Shown piece by piece: positions 3,933-43,808 of a DNA stretch of 64,000 nt. The notes below the pieces were generated by a model. The model saw only the letters and a list, made by a program, of their open reading frames with translations. It did not search any database and was not told the DNA's origin. The stretch lies in assembly GCA_022564195.1 (NCBI GenBank), contig JADFLW010000005.1, forward strand, positions 6,808 to 70,807. The letters are read 5' to 3'. Every line of letters starts with the position of its first letter. Position 1 is the first letter of the stretch. A program made the position numbers and the translations under genes. The DNA is from Patescibacteria group bacterium. GTDB taxonomy: Bacteria > Patescibacteriota > Microgenomatia > UBA1400 > Chisholmbacteraceae.

Positions 3933-6239
3933 TCACACAGCACAATAAGAGTATGCGCATTGCGGGCAGGTCGCGCATCCTTCCGCGAAGGTCATCGCAC
4001 TTCCACATTCAGGACAGACTCCTTCGAGCGCAGCAATCTTCTTCGTCTCCATTCTCTTGGATGCCGGGTGTTTTTCAGCGACGGTACTTAACACTTGATC
4101 CACCTTGCTCCCATCCCGATAAATCGTGATCCCTTTACATCCCAATCGCCATGCTAATAGATACGCGTCCTTCACATCCTTGCGCTTAGCGCTATGTTTA
4201 AAATTAATGGTCTTCGACACCGAATTATCACAATACTTCTGCCATGCAGCCTGAATTTTGACATGCCACGGCCAATCAACCTCATGGGTTGTCACAAACA
4301 CTTCAGCCATCTTCTTCGGTACACCTTTCAAACCACTGAGGCTCCCCTGCTTCTTAAGATGCGAAAGAATCCCTCGTTTCGTGAGCCCTTGAATTTCTCC
4401 ATTCTTAAGCTTAACATCCAAAACCTCCTCAAACACCGGATCCACGATTGTCATCGTCTTCGTCGCCCGATTCCTGCGATCATCCTCAAAGAACGTCCTC
4501 CGGGCAGTGACCAATGAGAATACTGGTTCAATACCTGCACTGCAGTTGGCAAAAAGGCTGATGGTGCCAGTCGGCGCGATCGTCAGCATCGTCGCATTCC
4601 GGTAGCGCTCTGCCGTACCCGCCCAGTAGCTGATATCAAAATTGGGAAAAACGCCACGCGCTTTTGCAAGCTCCATGGAAGCCGCTTCCGCTTCTCTTTT
4701 GATAAACTTTCCCAAGTGATCTGCCATCGCGACCGCTTCGCGGCTGCCATATGGAATGCCAAGCTTAAAAAGAAGATGGGCAAATCCCATCACCCCCAAA
4801 CCGATCTTGCGATTACCATGGCGCACCACCCGCTCAATTTCAGGAAGAATATAGGTATTCACCTCAATCATGTTATCCAAAAACCGAATCGCCGTGCGTA
4901 CCGTCTCCCCAAGATCATCCCAATCCACTTCCCAGCCAAATAGCCCGTGCGCATCGCGGCCTCGCTTGCCATTCTTCCGTTTGACATGCCTAGACAACAC
5001 GATGCTTGAAAGGTTACAACTCTCGTACGGCAAAAGCGGCTGCTCCCCGCATGGATTGGTGGCATCAAGCTTCCCTAGAGTGGGCGTGGGATTGTCCTGC
5101 TCCACGCGGTCCAAAAATATCATGCCCGGATCCCCGGTCTTGTGCGCCGCGGAAACAATCTCATCAAAAAGCCGACGGGCCTTCACAGTTACCGTGGTCT
5201 CACCGGTGCGCGGGTTCACCAAACGCCAGTCTTTGCCCTTCTCAACCGCTTCCATAAACGCATCCACCGCGCCCACCGAAATGTTGAAGTTCTTGATGTT
5301 CCCATCCTCTTCCTTCACCCGAATAAAATCATAAACATCAGGATGATCGGCATTAAGAATCGCCATGTTCCCACCCCGTCGCTTGGCACCCTGCAAGATC
5401 TTCGACAGAGCCGCCGAATACGCCTGTAAAAAGTCCACCGGTCCACTCGCCGCACCCGGAACGTTCTTCACCTTATCTCTGCACGGCCGGATCTTCGAAA
5501 AATTAAACCCAGTTCCACCGTTGTTTTTGTGAATGAGTGCCGCTTCCCCCAACGTTTTAAAAATGGAAGCAATGCTATCCTCAATCCCTAACACGAAACA
5601 GGCAGAAAGTTGCCCAGTCCCCCCATCATTGCCAGCCTCAAACATCGCCTTTCCGGAACAAACGAATTTCAATTTCACCATCCGCTCAAAAAATTCTCGC
5701 GCCATCCGCTCCACCTCTCCTTCGCTCTCCCAGCCAATCTCGGATTTTGCCATGTGCCGCGCCACCCGCCAAAGAAGCGCGCCCGGTGTCTCAATCACCC
5801 GACCTTGCATGTCGGTACGAAGATAACGCTTTTTGGCGACTTCCAACGAGTGCCCGGCCATCTCCGGCTCACGGATCTTCCACTCCGCTTCATCCGCTGC
5901 CTTTCTCGTGCTGTAGAGAATATAATACTTGGCCGTTGCGAAGTAGCCTGCTTGAGCTATAGCCGGCTCAACAATATTGCGGACTTCATCCACCGTGACC
6001 ATCCGGCGCCGACTAAAACCGTTCTGCAGTTTCGCCATCAGACCCTTGATAACTTTTGCCGCCTCTCGCTTCCCAAACTCTCCCGTGTCAGCTCCGGCGG
6101 CAATAACGCTGCGCTCGATCTTTGCCAGATCAAACGGCTCCTCCCGCCCATCCCGCTTTTTCACACCAAGAGAGCGCCTAGTCAGTTGCTCTCTTATGTC
6201 TTCAATTTGTTTTTTACCAAGAGCCAGGATTCCTTGCAT
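3933..6239 (-). CDS. nrdJ: class II ribonucleotide reductase, paralog 2, with ATP cone
   Basis: ATP cone (KKRDGREEPFDLAKIERSV). Core motifs LSACFVLGIED, NPCGEQPLLPYESCNLSS. C-terminal Zn ribbon CPECGSAMTFAEGCATCPQCAYSYC. Confidence 0.9.
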   Translation of the reverse strand: MQGILALGKKQIEDIREQLTRRSLGVKKRDGREEPFDLAKIERSVIAAGADTGEFGKREAAKVIKGLMAKLQNGFSRRRMVTVDEVRNIVEPAIAQAGYFATAKYYILYSTRKAADEAEWKIREPEMAGHSLEVAKKRYLRTDMQGRVIETPGALLWRVARHMAKSEIGWESEGEVERMAREFFERMVKLKFVCSGKAMFEAGNDGGTGQLSACFVLGIEDSIASIFKTLGEAALIHKNNGGTGFNFSKIRPCRDKVKNVPGAASGPVDFLQAYSAALSKILQGAKRRGGNMAILNADHPDVYDFIRVKEEDGNIKNFNISVGAVDAFMEAVEKGKDWRLVNPRTGETTVTVKARRLFDEIVSAAHKTGDPGMIFLDRVEQDNPTPTLGKLDATNPCGEQPLLPYESCNLSSIVLSRHVKRKNGKRGRDAHGLFGWEVDWDDLGETVRTAIRFLDNMIEVNTYILPEIERVVRHGNRKIGLGVMGFAHLLFKLGIPYGSREAVAMADHLGKFIKREAEAASMELAKARGVFPNFDISYWAGTAERYRNATMLTIAPTGTISLFANCSAGIEPVFSLVTARRTFFEDDRRNRATKTMTIVDPVFEEVLDVKLKNGEIQGLTKRGILSHLKKQGSLSGLKGVPKKMAEVFVTTHEVDWPWHVKIQAAWQKYCDNSVSKTINFKHSAKRKDVKDAYLLAWRLGCKGITIYRDGSKVDQVLSTVAEKHPASKRMETKKIAALEGVCPECGSAMTFAEGCATCPQCAYSYCAV

Positions 6240-6268: not shown

Positions 6269-8254
6269 TCAGGCTACATTGCAATAGCTGTAGGAGCAAT
6301 TCGGGCAGGTTGCACATCCATCCTGAAACACCATCGGCGTTCTGCAGTCCGGACAAATTCCCTCATCTCCGTTCACCACAACATAGCGATGTTCATGGAG
6401 TTCTTGCCGCACCTCACCGTTCACTTCTCCGTCGACAAGCTCGACTACTTCCGATGAGCCTCCAGAAGAAACCTTCCCAAGATTCAACACCTGCTGCGAA
6501 CGGCTTTTATCACGATAGATGGTAATGCCCATACAACCCGTGTCATAAGCCATAAGGTAGGCACGCCGGACATCCTCAACCGTTGCCGTCTCTGGCAAAT
6601 TAATGGTCTTGGAAACCGCGCTATCAAAGTATCGCTGCCATGCTGCCTGCATCTTGACATGCCACTTCCAACGAATATCATGGCTTGTTGCAAAAATTCG
6701 CTGAAGATCATCCGGTACTCCGTCGATATCCTGACAGCTTCCGGTCTGTGCAACCTCACTCAATATCCGTTCTCTACGCTTTCGACTCCTCACCCGGTTG
6801 GCAAGCTGTCGTTTAAACTCAGCGTTGAACTCGGTTAATTCGGTTTTACCGATATCCAAAATATTGCGTCTCGTGAAGCTCAATGCAAAAATCGGCTCGA
6901 TTCCAGAAGAGCAGGAAGCTAAAATACTGATAGTCCCGGTTGGCGCTATGGTCGTAACGGTGCTGTTGCGCATCGCAGGATATTTTTTCTCCCATCGACT
7001 ACCTTCAAAGGCAGAAAACGATCCGCGGGCGCGTCCCATTGCAACCGACGCATCCCGTGCCACGCGGTCTACGAACCGAGCGATCTTCCGCCCAATTGCC
7101 ACCCCTTCTGTTGAGTTGTAGGCAATACCAAGGCGAAACAGCAAATCGGCAAACCCCATCAGCCCCAAACCGATCTTGCGTGTTCTCTTCGACATCTCAT
7201 CAATTTCTGCCAAAGGATATTCACAAACATCAATGACATTATCCAAAAACCGAACCGCCAGCCTCGTTACTTCCTCCAATTTCTTCCAATCAACAAGCAT
7301 TTCAATATCTCTTTTCTCTTTACCCCTATGCTCTTTAGTCTTATTCTCTTTAGTCCTTTGAATAACAAATTTCGCCAAATTAATGGAACCTAAGTTGCAG
7401 CTTTGATAGGGCAGAAGTGGTTGCTCGCCACACGGATTGGTCGCCTCAATCTCTCCCAGGTGGCGGATAGGACAGGCTGCATTCATCCGGTCCAAGAAAA
7501 CCAGACCAGGATCCGCCACCTCCCACGCATATTCACAAATTTGTTCAAAGATCTCCCGTGCCCCAACCCGTCGGACGGTCTTGCCAGTGTGAGGCGCAAC
7601 CAAAGCGTAGGTCCCATCACGACGCAAGGCTTCCATAAAACTATCGGTGATGCCAACGGAAACGTTGAAGTTCCGGAGTCGTGTGCCACTGGCTTTCGCA
7701 ACGATGAACTCACGAATATCCGGATGGTCAACACGCAAGATCCCCATCATCGCCACCCTCCGACTCGACCCCTCGTTAATCACTTGAGCCATATGATCAA
7801 AAAGATCCATGTATGAAACAGGGCCTGAGGCAATCCCGCCCGTGCTCGACACCAAACTTCCCCGAGGCCGAAGACGAGAAAACGCGAAGCCGACACCCCC
7901 CCCTGTCCGCAATACAAGCGCTGCATCATGAAGAGTCTTGAAGATGCTCTCCAAGCCATCATCGATAGGAAGAACAAAACATGCCGAAAGCTGATTCACC
8001 CCATTACGACCCGCATGCATGAGTGTCGGGGAGTTGGGCAAAAATTCAAAACGTATCATCATCCGATAAAAGGCTCTGGCGTCAACCACCACATCCTCAC
8101 CATAGCTTCCACTCGCAGCCGCTATCGCATTGGCAACCCTGCGAAACATCTGCTCAGGAGTTTCAGTGACATTCCCTTTATCATCGCGCTTCAAATAATC
8201 GCGCATCTGAAGGACAGTTTTTGCGTTTTCCGATAGGCCTCTCATTACCAACAT
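6269..8254 (-). CDS. nrdJ: class II ribonucleotide reductase, paralog 3, lacking the ATP cone
   Basis: Core motifs LSACFVLPIDD, NPCGEQPLLPYQSCNLGSINL. C-terminal Zn ribbon CPDCRTPMVFQDGCATCPNCSYSYC. No N-terminal ATP-cone. Confidence 0.85.
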   Translation of the reverse strand: MLVMRGLSENAKTVLQMRDYLKRDDKGNVTETPEQMFRRVANAIAAASGSYGEDVVVDARAFYRMMIRFEFLPNSPTLMHAGRNGVNQLSACFVLPIDDGLESIFKTLHDAALVLRTGGGVGFAFSRLRPRGSLVSSTGGIASGPVSYMDLFDHMAQVINEGSSRRVAMMGILRVDHPDIREFIVAKASGTRLRNFNVSVGITDSFMEALRRDGTYALVAPHTGKTVRRVGAREIFEQICEYAWEVADPGLVFLDRMNAACPIRHLGEIEATNPCGEQPLLPYQSCNLGSINLAKFVIQRTKENKTKEHRGKEKRDIEMLVDWKKLEEVTRLAVRFLDNVIDVCEYPLAEIDEMSKRTRKIGLGLMGFADLLFRLGIAYNSTEGVAIGRKIARFVDRVARDASVAMGRARGSFSAFEGSRWEKKYPAMRNSTVTTIAPTGTISILASCSSGIEPIFALSFTRRNILDIGKTELTEFNAEFKRQLANRVRSRKRRERILSEVAQTGSCQDIDGVPDDLQRIFATSHDIRWKWHVKMQAAWQRYFDSAVSKTINLPETATVEDVRRAYLMAYDTGCMGITIYRDKSRSQQVLNLGKVSSGGSSEVVELVDGEVNGEVRQELHEHRYVVVNGDEGICPDCRTPMVFQDGCATCPNCSYSYCNVA

Positions 8255-8284: not shown

Positions 8285-8740
8285 CTATGTGGACTGCTCC
8301 AGCTGTTTAATCTCCCGTTTGAAATCGTCAATATCTTGAAAATCCCGATACACGCTCGCAAACAGCAAATAGCCAACGGGGTCCAACTTGCGTAAACGGG
8401 TGATCACCAACTTCCCAACCTCCCAACTTTTTATTTCTTTATTCTTCCTGCGCCTAATCTTCCGCTCAACATCCTCAATGAGTTTCTCAATCTGCTCGAT
8501 GGATACTGGCCGTTTCCAAGTAGCCTTCATGAGTCCCTTTTTAATTTTCTCTCGATCAAATGGCTCGCGAGTTCCATCTTTCTTAAGAACGACAAGATCA
8601 ATGCCCTCAATCCGCTCGTACGTTGTGAACCGTTTCTCGCACACGTTGCATTCGCGTCGCCGCCTGATGCTTTCTTCATCCTCAGTCAGTCTGCTCTCCA
8701 AAACGCTGCTATCACGCTGCCCGCAATACGGACATTTCAT
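8285..8740 (-). CDS. nrdR: transcriptional repressor NrdR
   Basis: N-terminal Zn ribbon MKCPYCG...CNVCEKRF followed by an ATP-cone. 151 aa. Sits immediately upstream of RNR paralog 3. Confidence 0.9.
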   Translation of the reverse strand: MKCPYCGQRDSSVLESRLTEDEESIRRRRECNVCEKRFTTYERIEGIDLVVLKKDGTREPFDREKIKKGLMKATWKRPVSIEQIEKLIEDVERKIRRRKNKEIKSWEVGKLVITRLRKLDPVGYLLFASVYRDFQDIDDFKREIKQLEQST

Positions 8741-9210: not shown

Positions 9211-10524
9211 TTAATCAAACGTAACTTCGCAATGTTTGCAAATATCACAAGGCCCAACCATCGTATTCTCAGCGCGACAAACACGACAGGTGCCCGAATG
9301 ATAGGTCCATGACTTCTCACTGCTTCCAAACGATACTCCATCTAATGCAAGAACGGTAAACCCGTCCAAGGAAAACCCAATCGACGCAATCATTCCCGGC
9401 GGGCAACCACCACCCCCGACTCTCTGCGTTTCAAGATCTCCATAGCGATTAAGGAGATGTGCTTGTAGTCGTCCCGCTTCTATTACAACTGAATCCGCCG
9501 CGACACCCCCTTCGAAGCCCCTTAAGTGAAAACTCCTATTAACGTCCCGCCTCCATCGACAATCTTCCGTCAACTGATGAGCAGTGAGAATCTGCCCGCA
9601 CTCCGCAAAGACTTTGACAGCCCGCCGTGCAAAACTGTACGCCAGCTCTAATTCCGAGAGGCCCTTCTGATCCAAGCCCATTGAATGGGTACGCAGTTCC
9701 TCTCGTAAAGCTTCTGCTAAAAATGCAGCCGATTCCCGTAGCTGCGGCTCATAGGATGCAAAAGTTTCGGGAGCGAGACTCGAACCGAAACCAACACCAG
9801 AAACAACAAATCGATCATCGCTGTTGGCAATTTCATCAATCCGCGCAACAACATCATCAGCCGTTTGCATTATTGGGTTGTCCGAAATATCAATAGGACT
9901 TGAAACAAAAAACTCTGGAGTACTCTGCGAATCAGGAGGAGCGGCAACCCACTCAGCGAAACCAGACAGTTGAGCATGACCCTCAAGCGACAGCGCATTC
10001 TTATAAAACATCACACGGACTCGCCTACCTGCTCCTGGATCTCCTTCGACTCGATACACATACGTCAAGCTCACGCCGGTATAACCATCCTCTGCCGGTC
10101 CTGGAGGATAACTAAGAACGAATGTCGAACCATCGGGACAATCAAGGCATCTGCGTCGAAGCTCCCGCATGCCAACAAGCTCTGCGAGTTCTCGCTCGTA
10201 CGGCTTGCCAGCCGCCCTTCTCTTCTTTACTCCATTCAATGTAATGCGAGTGATGTCACCGAACGCTCGATGGTCAGCGGTAGTTAAAATCAGCCGTTCG
10301 TTTTCTCCTTCGCTAAACTCAAACTCAAAACTGCCTCGCCGCAGAACATCTTCTCCAACGGCGGTGGAAAAGTTAGCATAAAGACGTCGCTCAATGCTCT
10401 CTGTTACTCCACCAACGCGCAGGGCGGCATCAAACTCATCACGAAAATCAAAATGGGGATTAGTTACTTCAAGAACATTCATCCCCTCATGAAGATAAAC
10501 ACCTCTGCGTTCTGCTGCAGCCAT
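9211..10524 (-). CDS. hypothetical cytoplasmic protein with C-terminal Cys-rich zinc-ribbon
   Basis: 437 aa with no recognisable domain. C-terminus is CRVCRAENTMVGPCDICKHCEV. Start has GGAGA SD. Preceded by copy A of the duplicated element. Confidence 0.6.
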   Translation of the reverse strand: MAAAERRGVYLHEGMNVLEVTNPHFDFRDEFDAALRVGGVTESIERRLYANFSTAVGEDVLRRGSFEFEFSEGENERLILTTADHRAFGDITRITLNGVKKRRAAGKPYERELAELVGMRELRRRCLDCPDGSTFVLSYPPGPAEDGYTGVSLTYVYRVEGDPGAGRRVRVMFYKNALSLEGHAQLSGFAEWVAAPPDSQSTPEFFVSSPIDISDNPIMQTADDVVARIDEIANSDDRFVVSGVGFGSSLAPETFASYEPQLRESAAFLAEALREELRTHSMGLDQKGLSELELAYSFARRAVKVFAECGQILTAHQLTEDCRWRRDVNRSFHLRGFEGGVAADSVVIEAGRLQAHLLNRYGDLETQRVGGGGCPPGMIASIGFSLDGFTVLALDGVSFGSSEKSWTYHSGTCRVCRAENTMVGPCDICKHCEVTFD

Positions 10525-10556: not shown

Positions 10557-10580
10557 AAAGAAAACCTTCCCGAAGGAAGG
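10557..10580 (-). terminator. intrinsic terminator-like hairpin at the gene-proximal end of copy A
   Basis: The minus strand reads GGCCTTCCTTCGGGAAGG followed by TTTTCTTTG. The 3' arm of the hairpin contains GGAAGG. Confidence 0.5.
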
Positions 10581-10593
10581 CCTAATCTTAAAC

Positions 10594-10624
10594 TAGACGC
10601 TTAACGCTAGGCGCTAGACGCTAA
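10594..10624 (-). repeat. heptad tandem array TAGACGC-TTAACGC-TAGGCGC-TAGACGC-TAA, array 1 of copy A
   Basis: Four tandem 7-nt units TWRRCGC read on the plus strand. Duplicated at 10689-10719 and in copy B. Confidence 0.7.
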
Positions 10625-10688
10625 TTTATGCTCCTGCTCGGAAGAAAAGTTCCTCAAGCAACGTTCCTGACTCCTTAGTTCCTAACCC

Positions 10689-10719
10689 TAGACGCTTAAC
10701 GCTAGGCGCTAGACGCTAA
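10689..10719 (-). repeat. heptad tandem array, array 2 of copy A
   Basis: The same 31-nt sequence as 10594-10624. Confidence 0.7.
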
Positions 10720-10747
10720 ATTACAGTTGCGGCACAGCCCCAGGTTC

Positions 10748-10779
10748 CTCGCCTTCGCCGGAGCTCCGGCGAAGGCGAG
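10748..10779. repeat. perfect 32-bp palindrome CTCGCCTTCGCCGGAGCTCCGGCGAAGGCGAG
   Basis: The sequence equals its own reverse complement, with 16-bp arms. It lies about 25 nt 3' of the membrane-protein stop codon. It is flanked by a GGTTCC direct repeat. The equivalent segment in copy B is degenerate. Confidence 0.7.
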
Positions 10780-10803
10780 CCACTGGGTTCCGCTGCTACG
10801 AGG

Positions 10804-11816: not shown

Positions 11817-11839
11817 ATAAAAACCTTCCCGAAGGAAGG
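11817..11839 (-). terminator. terminator-like hairpin of copy B, overlapping the ribosome-binding site of the DUF4430 gene
   Basis: The minus strand reads GGCCTTCCTTCGGGAAGG-TTTTATT-ATG. GGAAGG in the 3' arm sits 7 nt from the start codon. Confidence 0.5.
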
Positions 11840-12050
11840 CCTAATCTTAAACTAGACGCTTAACGCTAGGCGCTAGACGCTAATTTATGCTCCTGCTCGG
11901 AAGAAAAGTTCCTCAAGCAACGTTCCTGACTCCTTAGTTCCTAACCCTAGACGCTTAACGCTAGGCGTTAGACGCTAAATTACAGTTGCGGCACAGCACC
12001 GGATTCCTCACTCCACCGAAGCTCCGGCGAAGACGAGCCACCGGTTTCCG
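11817..12050 (-). repeat. copy B of the ~234-bp duplicated element
   Basis: See copy A. Its terminal hairpin and T-tract abut the ATG of the DUF4430 gene. Confidence 0.75.
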
Positions 12051-12157
12051 CTGCTTAAAGTCCACTTGTCAATGAAATCACGATAACAACACTATCAACA
12101 CGCTGTCAATAGACAGTTCCGTCCTTCGCTTCCTCTAGCTCTCTTCTTACGCTTGCT

Positions 12158-32315: not shown

Positions 32316-32334
32316 TCGAACGCTAGACGCGAAC
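32316..32334 (-). repeat. short heptad-motif copy (AACGC-TAGACGC-GAACTTA) between ccdA and the TlpA-like gene
   Basis: Two TAGACGC-like units sit directly 3' of the ccdA stop codon. This is the weakest copy. Confidence 0.35.
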
Positions 32335-35084: not shown

Positions 35085-35396
35085 CTAGTCAAAGCCCAAC
35101 TCCGCCCTCACTTCCTCGCTCATCATCTCCTGCGCCCACGGTGGATCGAATGTCAACTCAATCGAAACATCCGTCACCTCCTCGATATCACGAATCGCAT
35201 CACCAACAAGTTGATCCAAAACACCTGCAAGCGGACACCCCGGAGTGGTGAGCGTCATCAGGATATAAACTTTGACTTTTGACTTTTGACTTTTGACTTT
35301 TACTTTATACACAAGCCCTAAATCGACGATATTAACACCCAACTCCGGATCAATCACAGTCTTAAGCTGCGAGTACACTGCTTGCGTATTCACCAT
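35085..35396 (-). CDS. DUF59 / MIP18-family Fe-S assembly protein (SufT-like)
   Basis: LKTVIDPELGVNIVDLGLVY...LTTPGCPLAG...ELTFDPPW. Carries a KVKVKSQKSKVKV low-complexity insert. The ORF is open to 35483. Confidence 0.7.
   Translation of the reverse strand: MVNTQAVYSQLKTVIDPELGVNIVDLGLVYKVKVKSQKSKVKVYILMTLTTPGCPLAGVLDQLVGDAIRDIEEVTDVSIELTFDPPWAQEMMSEEVRAELGFD
35270..35304. repeat. tandem heptamer repeat (TTTTGAC)x4-5 inside the DUF59 gene
   Basis: The plus strand reads TTTGAC TTTTGAC TTTTGAC TTTTGAC TTTTAC. It encodes the KVKSQKSKVKV insert. Confidence 0.65.
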
Positions 35397-35515
35397 ACCC
35401 CGATTATACATAATCATCCAAACCAAACGGGACACATCTCTGCAACAAATGAAAAGCCCCGCAGGTGCGGGGCTTTTTCCCACGTTCTACACAAACGTTT
35501 TGAAAAGGGTGCCGA

Positions 35516-37292: not shown

Positions 37293-37334
37293 AAAAAAGC
37301 CGGCGCATAAGCCCTTCTGAGTAACAAAAGGGCT
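37293..37334 (-). terminator. terminator-like hairpin 3' of the ferredoxin gene
   Basis: AGCCCTT-CTGAGTAACAA-AAGGGCT. On the minus strand GCGCCGGC then T6 follow. Confidence 0.4.
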
Positions 37335-37365
37335 CCGATTTCTCGGAACCCTATCTCCCAGATTC

Positions 37366-37396
37366 TAAACGCTAGCCGCTATACGCTAAACGCTAA
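37366..37396 (-). repeat. heptad tandem array TAAACGC-TAGCCGC-TATACGC-TAAACGC-TAA immediately 3' of the ferredoxin stop codon
   Basis: Four tandem TANNCGC units. Same orientation and periodicity as the arrays in the duplicated element. Abuts the minus-strand TGA at 37399-37401. Confidence 0.55.
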
Positions 37397-43750: not shown

Positions 43751-43806
43751 CTACGCCCTAAACCCTAGACGCTTGTCCTGAGCGAAGTCGAAGGGCTAGA
43801 CGCTAA
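43751..43806 (-). repeat. heptad array (CTACGCC-CTAAACC-CTAGACGC...CTAGACGC-TAAATTC) split by a 23-nt GC-rich insert, between the exonuclease stop and the sufC start
   Basis: TAGACGC units flank the insert TTGTCCTGAGCGAAGTCGAAGGG. The array abuts the minus-strand TGA at 43809-43811. The sufC ATG is 8 nt beyond it. Confidence 0.5.
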
Positions 43807-43808
43807 AT

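Follow-up and report, generated by a model that had tools for sequence, protein, structure and literature searches.

This locus raises the question of what is represented by a 7-nt unit that recurs head to tail at several places in a single stretch of bacterial DNA: a signal read in the transcript or on the DNA, a safeguard of translation, a miniature mobile element, or a simple repeat that is copied between sites and tolerated there. The stretch analysed, referred to below as the window, is 64 kb of a Patescibacteria group bacterium (candidate phyla radiation), and all array coordinates are given in plus-strand numbering. A first-pass annotation, made from the letters alone, had described a family of heptad repeats carried twice by each copy of a duplicated element and found again at three other loci, and had considered several RNA-level roles for it.

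Heptad arrays in the window

Read on the minus strand, which is the transcribed strand, the unit is TAGCGNN, present four times and closed by a TAG to give 31 nt. The two arrays of the duplicated element, A and B, are identical over 32 nt (T-TAGCGTC-TAGCGCC-TAGCGTT-AAGCGTC-TAG on the minus strand) and present four UAG triplets and one AAG triplet at 7-nt spacing; UAG falls in all three reading frames over the repeat, as had been pointed out before. The copies are as follows.

10593..10624, minus strand: array A, copy 1, in the linker from riboswitch aptamer to terminator
10688..10719, minus strand: array B, copy 1, in a peripheral part of the aptamer that varies, with CAACUGUAA on one side and the B12 box on the other
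11852..11883, minus strand: array A, copy 2, found by pattern search and Tandem Repeats Finder
11947..11978, minus strand: array B, copy 2, with one unit TAACG, not TAGCG
37365..37396, minus strand: single array T-TAGCGTT-TAGCGTA-TAGCGGC-TAGCGTT-TAG, with four perfect cores and the spacers TT, TA, GC and TT
43751..43808, minus strand: split copy, consisting of ATTTAGCGTCTAGC, a 20-nt unrelated interior and AAGCGTCTAGGGTTTAGGGCGTAG
32316..32334, minus strand: possible solo remnant GCGTCTAGCG, indistinguishable from chance

Six of these copies are clear, and four of the six lie inside two cobalamin riboswitches, which are described below. Our analysis confirmed that the arrays are real and non-random. 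A relaxed pattern (three units of TARNNGC, one mismatch allowed) matched eight times in the window, always on the plus strand, against 0.01 matches expected from shuffled sequence. Tandem Repeats Finder reported a period of 7 with 4.4-4.6 copies at 10593, 10688, 11852 and 37365, and together with the pattern search it recovered the 31-nt array twice in each copy of the duplicated element, exactly where it had first been placed. When the minus and plus strands were scored for TAGCG at period 7, 17 scoring windows were found on the former and none on the latter. The pentamer CGCTA occurs 57 times on the plus strand, against 17 occurrences of TAGCG, and its short-range spacings are 7, 14 and 21 nt only. 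Within the arrays the 5-nt core is fixed and the two positions NN vary, with one core mismatch in 40 positions for the two array types together.

The polarity of the copies is indeed uniform, as originally claimed: TAGCG lies on the minus strand in all of them, and the flanking genes have this same strand as their sense strand. The minus strand is also the G-rich strand, and the GC skew keeps one sign throughout the window. Because GC skew, and hence replication polarity, is just as uniform, the polarity of the arrays is not assignable to transcription. On the plus strand the skew runs from -0.13 to -0.30 over all 64 kb, including the region from 15 to 23 kb in which the genes are on the plus strand. 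No more array copies were present in a further 7.3 kb beyond the start of the window.

Two of the clear copies lie outside the riboswitches. The 37365 array comes after a ferredoxin gene, beginning 2 nt past its TGA stop, and is itself followed by a hairpin that resembles an intrinsic terminator:

37329..37352, minus strand: intrinsic-terminator-like hairpin, separated by 12 nt from the 37365 array upstream of it, with 10 pairs (six of them G-C) and the tail TTTGTT

The split copy occupies the 65-nt spacer from an RNase H-like gene to sufC, in an operon made up of Rrf2, RNase H-like, sufCBD, sufS and nifU genes. It has two exact 14-mers, GCTAGACGCTAAAT and AACCCTAGACGCTT, in common with array B and its flanks, where 0.04 and 0.00 would be expected; its interior, which differs from array B, is 20 nt long. 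Judged by these two 14-mers, the 43751-43808 locus is a genuine relative of array B. At both the 37365 and the 43751 loci, the first TAG stands in frame two codons past the TGA (TGA AAT TAG and TGA ATT TAG). The two-unit version at 32316-32334, between DsbD-like and redoxin genes, has only the 8-mer CTAGACGC in common with the arrays. This 8-mer has 10 matches, all on the plus strand, against 0.97 expected, and since about one occurrence is expected, the extra match at 32316 is compatible with chance.

Two of the three further loci originally assigned to the family are therefore retained here, the array at 37366 and, through its shared 14-mers, the split copy at 43751, and the 32316 site is left near chance. 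The accompanying statement that every copy lies in a spacer between minus-strand genes holds for the 3' UTR copy and the operon-spacer copy and had to be amended for the four that lie in riboswitch leaders. The suggestion of a miniature dispersed repeat family is supported by the identity of arrays A and B over 32 nt and by the exact termini that the 43751 copy has in common with array B.

The duplicated element and its cobalamin riboswitch core

The element that carries arrays A and B is duplicated over 190 nt at 98% identity and a further 45 nt at 87%, with 1259 nt from start to start. In minus orientation it opens with a long hairpin, which is followed by array B; array A comes 64 nt further on, and another 12 nt separate it from a hairpin that is rich in G+C and accompanied by a U run, behind which stand a ribosome-binding site and an ATG. 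Both copies resemble cobalamin riboswitches:

10561..10797, minus strand: cobalamin riboswitch copy 1, aptamer match 10663-10791, terminator-like hairpin and T run 10562-10583
11820..12073, minus strand: cobalamin riboswitch copy 2, aptamer match 11899-12073, terminator-like hairpin 11821-11842

In a permissive Rfam search (cmscan), copy 1 matched RF00174 with 22.8 bits (E = 0.003) and copy 2 with 28.9 bits over the full length of the model (E = 5e-5). The gathering score of RF00174 is 31.5, so that both copies lie just under it, and it is because they score below this threshold that a default Rfam search of the window comes back empty; in gathering mode there was no match in the window, in the orthologous leaders or in the 20 hairpin loci treated in the next section. 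The duplicated element contains a B12 box-like AGUCAGGAAC, and in an alignment of five leaders the aptamer core (GGAA..GUG, GCCGCAACUGU, AGYCAGGA) and the terminator are invariant. Copy 2 precedes DUF4430-DUF6580 genes, which we take to be a B12 uptake-like operon, DUF4430 being the transcobalamin-like C-terminal domain. Copy 1 precedes the gene of a 437-aa protein (9211-10524, minus strand), followed by nrdR and nrdJ; NrdR and two NrdJ proteins, the latter adenosylcobalamin-dependent ribonucleotide reductases, exceed their NCBIfam cut-offs. Set against RF00174, the element falls short of the gathering threshold and has the conserved core, the context of B12 genes and an expression platform, and this combination shows it to have the make-up of a diverged cobalamin riboswitch, present twice, an identity that had escaped the first-pass annotation. 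With RF00174 it has in common the core, the B12 box-like motif, the position upstream of B12-related genes and the terminator; it differs in that a peripheral stem and the linker of the expression platform are built from a heptad array.

The window thus contains two diverged Patescibacteria cobalamin riboswitches that are missed at the Rfam threshold, one of them ahead of the 437-aa protein. Orthologous leaders in three relatives (L125, L126 and L127) were likewise missed by RF00174 in gathering mode. Patescibacteria variants of the cobalamin riboswitch appear to be under-represented in the Rfam model.

The 437-aa protein has a Cys-rich C-terminus and is without a Pfam or NCBIfam match. Only four distant homologues were found, each behind the same leader. 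Homologues with the same leader core are 51-62% identical to the protein, and their leaders have in common the core GGAAnCnnGUG, GCUGUGCCGCAACUGU, AGYCAGGAAC and CCGAGCAGGA as well as the same terminator. Three of the homologous genes are located as follows.

L125, 1848-3239: gene of a 437-aa protein homologue
L126, 2317-3660: gene of a 437-aa protein homologue
L127, 981-2294: gene of a 437-aa protein homologue

We regard the 437-aa protein as a candidate new B12-related protein. Downstream of its gene lie the NrdR gene (8285-8740) and three tandem class II (NrdJ-like) paralogues (633-2900, 3933-6239 and 6269-8254), and the relative L125 has the same triple NrdJ-like arrangement.

The alignment of the five leaders also shows where the repeats sit, since the arrays coincide exactly with its two length-variable segments. 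Array B is placed by the cmscan alignment in the variable peripheral stems of the aptamer, 100 nt upstream of the terminator, and in the orthologues its position is taken by hairpins that are 25-50 nt long and unrelated to it. Array A is flanked by the conserved CCGAGCAGGAG on one side and by the terminator on the other, with 12 nt left between its end and the terminator stem; at its position the remnants TTAGCGTTT...CTAGCGTCTAA are kept only in L126, a 60% relative. In this way a riboswitch that looks functional contains a simple heptad repeat in its peripheral stem as well as in its expression platform, which provides a concrete case of riboswitch variable regions remodelled by repeat turnover. 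If anything is new here, it is that a simple repeat has remodelled a riboswitch, together with the riboswitch-controlled 437-aa protein.

Folding predictions gave a mixed picture. Array A with its flanks is predicted to form a hairpin of -16.2 kcal/mol (z = -3.3), and array B with the following UAGGGUUAGGAACUAAGG one of -18.1 kcal/mol (z = -2.2 to -2.6), in both cases by means of the CUAG palindrome and G.U pairs; these z-scores are modest, and the antisense strand gives similar values. The 43751 copy is predicted to form a 12-bp stem with four G.U pairs (-18.5 kcal/mol, z = -1.2). The predicted fold of the 37365 array is no better than that of shuffles (z = 0.4), and for this reason a hairpin is not common to all arrays. 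The three array substitutions all fall at unpaired bases or convert G.U to A-U in the predicted hairpins: the strain SNP at 10601 (array A) is at a predicted unpaired base, that at 10707 (array B) is in a predicted bulge, and the TAACG change in copy 2 of array B would turn a G.U into an A-U pair with the energy unchanged.

Strains, relatives and heptad arrays elsewhere

Five strain-level contigs (99.8-99.9% identity) have the same number of units at every array. This comparison, which involves few contigs of low divergence, shows no change in copy number and therefore indicates that slippage is not going on at present. Of the SNPs in contig L121, two of 18 fall in arrays, and of those in contig L128 none of 39, which is no significant excess overall; the 37365 array is unchanged in L128.

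At greater distances the arrays are absent. The first-pass annotation had looked to conservation in related genomes as a check on its proposal, and none was seen: orthologous leaders and spacers of relatives at 51-81% protein identity, in which synteny is kept, hold no TAGCG arrays, and neither does the remainder of their 2-20-kb loci. The same applies to the three relatives with an orthologous riboswitch and to the relatives of the suf locus (73-81% identity of the RNase H-like protein), which have no TAGCG array within 11-20 kb; synteny from Rrf2 to ferredoxin is kept where the contig reaches (L249 and L251). Since the arrays are absent in relatives and unchanged in near-identical strains, they are likely to be young, species-specific and currently stable. 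The suf-operon spacers of L249 and L250 hold instead a CCAATAA-like tandem repeat that has a period of 8 and contains TAA:

L249, 6573-6601, 8975-9020 and 12123-12228: CCAATAA-like repeats
L250, 10601-10640: CCAATAA-like repeat

The spacers concerned include the one that matches the spacer with the split TAGCG copy of the window. The same suf spacers have been colonised by different lineage-specific repeats, the carriers of CCAATAA, L249 and L250, being at 75-81% protein identity.

Arrays of the same kind occur far beyond these relatives. When one genome was taken for each species and searched for three perfect TAGCG units, at least 120 loci from dozens of phyla were found; among the genome loci listed are perfect arrays of considerable length as well as inverted arrays that converge and would give long hairpins. 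In these same loci (0.83 Mb), no other tandem period comes near 7 in frequency, with 319 arrays of this period among those listed, and 170 of the 319 are without TAGCG. In four-unit scans of viral contigs, TAGCG gave 42 loci, and five control cores matched to it in composition gave 70 (TGACG), 17 (GATCG), 19 (TACGG), 76 (TAGGC) and 64 (AGTCG), each set having perfect as well as interrupted arrays. These counts show that the TAGCG core is not special. The idea of TAGCG as a motif recognised across bacteria was rejected as a product of ascertainment, the same loci holding heptads of other units and the control cores being comparably frequent. None of the metagenome and genome loci examined matches the window at the DNA level. 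In several of the loci, intergenic runs of several different heptad arrays were observed (L014 300-565, L030 80-410, L037 60-275, L073, L078 and L093), and such arrays are often inverted pairs, for instance GGGCGTG/CACGCCC in L031 and GAATCAT/TGATTCA in L106.

A stricter scan of metagenomes again returned at least 120 loci and, among the matches listed, a coherent family of hairpins of about 70 nt. Their form is (TAGCGKN)4TAG, a T-rich loop and CTA(NMCGCTA)4, with 6-bp helices split by mismatched positions, and they fill short spacers between co-directional genes in L134, L156, L205, L223, L241 and about 20 other metagenome loci. The family has no Rfam match, and an all-against-all BLAST of the ORFs that adjoin metagenome arrays found no recurring gene family. 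In other lineages the arm of four units plus TAG occurs singly or as an inverted doublet. Selection at the RNA level on these hairpin-type relatives was considered and rejected, since the comparison of sense with antisense energies, made for 25 hairpins flanked by co-directional genes, came out at 13 versus 12 (Wilcoxon p = 0.85).

Origin and possible roles of the arrays

Among the readings in which the arrays are a signal, the likeliest is that of RNA sites at which an oligomeric HutP- or TRAP-type regulator would recognise UAG at 7-nt spacing and modulate nearby terminators or the riboswitch fold. The HutP site in the hut leader of Bacillus subtilis consists of UAG triplets 4 nt apart, in two clusters, in a leader with a terminator. 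The UAG-N4 spacing of the arrays is that of HutP sites, and arrays A and B have the three or more UAG triplets separated by 4 nt that such a site needs; there are two arrays per riboswitch leader, array A and the 37365 array each end 12 nt before a terminator, all arrays have sense polarity, and the core is constant where the 2-nt spacer varies. Against this, the clusters have five units rather than three and lie 64 nt apart, and whereas a HutP-type site overlaps or abuts the terminator, array A stops 12 nt before it, array B is 100 nt upstream and neither overlaps the terminator stem. One unit per array is AAG instead of UAG, SNPs between near-identical strains fall in core positions, array B is predicted to be paired within an aptamer stem, and elsewhere arrays built on other cores occur just as often. 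The phylum is unrelated, the window ORFs scanned contain no member of the HutP, TRAP or any other family of RNA-binding regulators, and HutP (PF09021) had no match there or among the called genes of L121, L128 and L533. Orthologous riboswitches and spacers of relatives, finally, are without arrays, and these comparative data make the protein-site reading unlikely. We would rate a HutP- or TRAP-type site as unlikely overall, and as quite improbable the more specific idea, drawn by analogy, that (UAGCGNN)4UAG represents the sites of an undescribed Patescibacteria oligomeric RNA-binding regulator that would occupy two places on a cobalamin riboswitch as well as positions beside terminators and couple B12, Fe-S and redox genes. 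If the arrays were protein sites, they would make up a layer of regulation that is new for a phylum with hardly any known regulators, and such a regulator would add control by a protein to that by the riboswitch.

A miniature mobile element of the REP/REPIN or MITE type, with a transposase encoded elsewhere in the genome, would explain the identical 32-nt copies and the exact termini in common with a distant locus. REP/BIME and REPIN sequences are short, dispersed, hairpin-forming intergenic repeats of operons and 3' UTRs that occur as singlets and inverted doublets, and the arms in other lineages, single or in the inverted doublets that make up the spacer-filling hairpins of about 70 nt, are reminiscent of them. 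Such doublets were seen only in those other lineages and not in the window, however, and the arm is a direct heptad array rather than a palindrome. The window copies are not flanked by terminal inverted repeats or target-site duplications, no window ORF scanned has a transposase or RAYT domain, and no gene family recurs beside metagenomic arrays, all of which makes a mobile element unlikely. It is also conceivable, and in our view very unlikely, that the arrays serve, in double-stranded DNA, as the operators of a ribbon-helix-helix repressor able to polymerise along heptads of 7 bp, in the manner of omega of inc18 plasmids. Heptad direct repeats are the known architecture of omega operators, and the near-equal sense and antisense energies of the hairpin-type relatives (13 versus 12) leave nothing there that demands a role at the RNA level; the arrays of the window, on the other hand, lie in a leader, an aptamer stem, a 3' UTR and an operon-internal spacer and not at recognisable promoters, they are not conserved in relatives, and no ribbon-helix-helix gene or domain was found in the window ORFs scanned. 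The suggestion of the first-pass annotation that the arrays are multi-frame translational stops, which would catch read-through or frameshifted ribosomes at gene ends, draws on the UAG in all three frames and on the two loci at which an in-frame UAG, the first of the array, stands two codons past the UGA. This suggestion fared poorly and now seems very unlikely: the four riboswitch arrays do not follow the end of an ORF, a second in-frame stop within 3 codons occurs in 17% of cases against 12-24% out of frame (59 window ORFs), stop codon use is balanced (TGA 22, TAG 19, TAA 18), long ORFs are intact under the standard code, and relatives with the same genes are without arrays.

The best explanation, which we judge about as probable as not, is that the arrays are a young, species-specific, interrupted heptanucleotide repeat that has been copied among untranslated spacers and is tolerated in RNA or serves there as hairpin-forming filler. 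The arrays would arise by replication slippage, and whole blocks of 31-32 nt may then be copied between sites by recombination, gene conversion or some other copying step. They would persist only in untranslated parts of transcripts, because arrays in sense orientation stop translation in every frame. The CUAG palindrome and G.U pairs may allow units to pair among themselves or with flanks of the UAGGG type, and the arrays would for that reason be tolerated as hairpin-forming filler and not act as a sequence-specific signal. Several features speak against this explanation. The 37365 array shows no fold beyond that of shuffles, the hairpin z-scores are modest and much the same for the antisense strand, and unit numbers do not change among the strains. 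The core is kept while NN varies, which looks like selection on a recognised motif, and a directional RNA function would fit the single polarity of the six arrays and the two arrays that lie 12 nt upstream of terminator hairpins.

As to kind, the arrays belong to a known class, the prokaryotic heptanucleotide repeats. The STRR repeats of heterocystous cyanobacteria are dispersed intergenic tandem heptamers of unknown function and are usually perfect; they differ from the window arrays in unit and phylum, the latter being interrupted. Among the longer simple repeats of prokaryotes, those with heptanucleotide units are the commonest, and they are put down to polymerase slippage (Mrazek et al. 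2007, as summarised in PMC4679880; PMC4692102). The statement in the first-pass annotation that a 7-bp period is unusual, if taken as a generality, runs counter to this literature and to the dominance of heptads in the loci listed. Like the window arrays, heptanucleotide simple sequence repeats consist of head-to-tail 7-nt units; they are overwhelmingly intergenic, may have many different units per genome and are distributed by lineage (PMC4679880; PMC4692102). The window arrays have the tandem 7-nt units of this class and, like it, do not depend on one unit sequence, but they are short (4.4 units), interrupted and block-copied, and the instability of copy number that marks the class is not seen among the strains.

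A described parallel is TAACTGA, a dispersed stop-containing heptamer of Beggiatoaceae and cyanobacteria whose function is unknown (PMC4679880). These repeats, found in marine Beggiatoaceae, cyanobacteria and Bacteroidetes, comprise 2-6 intergenic heptamers with a patchy taxonomy and, like the window arrays, are mostly oriented as the neighbouring gene (PMC4679880). TAACTGA sets lie mostly just upstream of start codons (PMC4679880), whereas here only the 43751 copy is so placed and the other copies are in riboswitch leaders or a 3' UTR; the unit, TAGCGNN, is also a different one. One more heptad array in the window lies within a coding region: a near-perfect array of four to five AGTCAAA units (35271-35306, minus strand) inside the FeS_assembly_P/DUF59 ORF at 35085-35483 encodes ...VYKVKVKSQKSKVKVYIL..., and slippage in this array could shift the reading frame.
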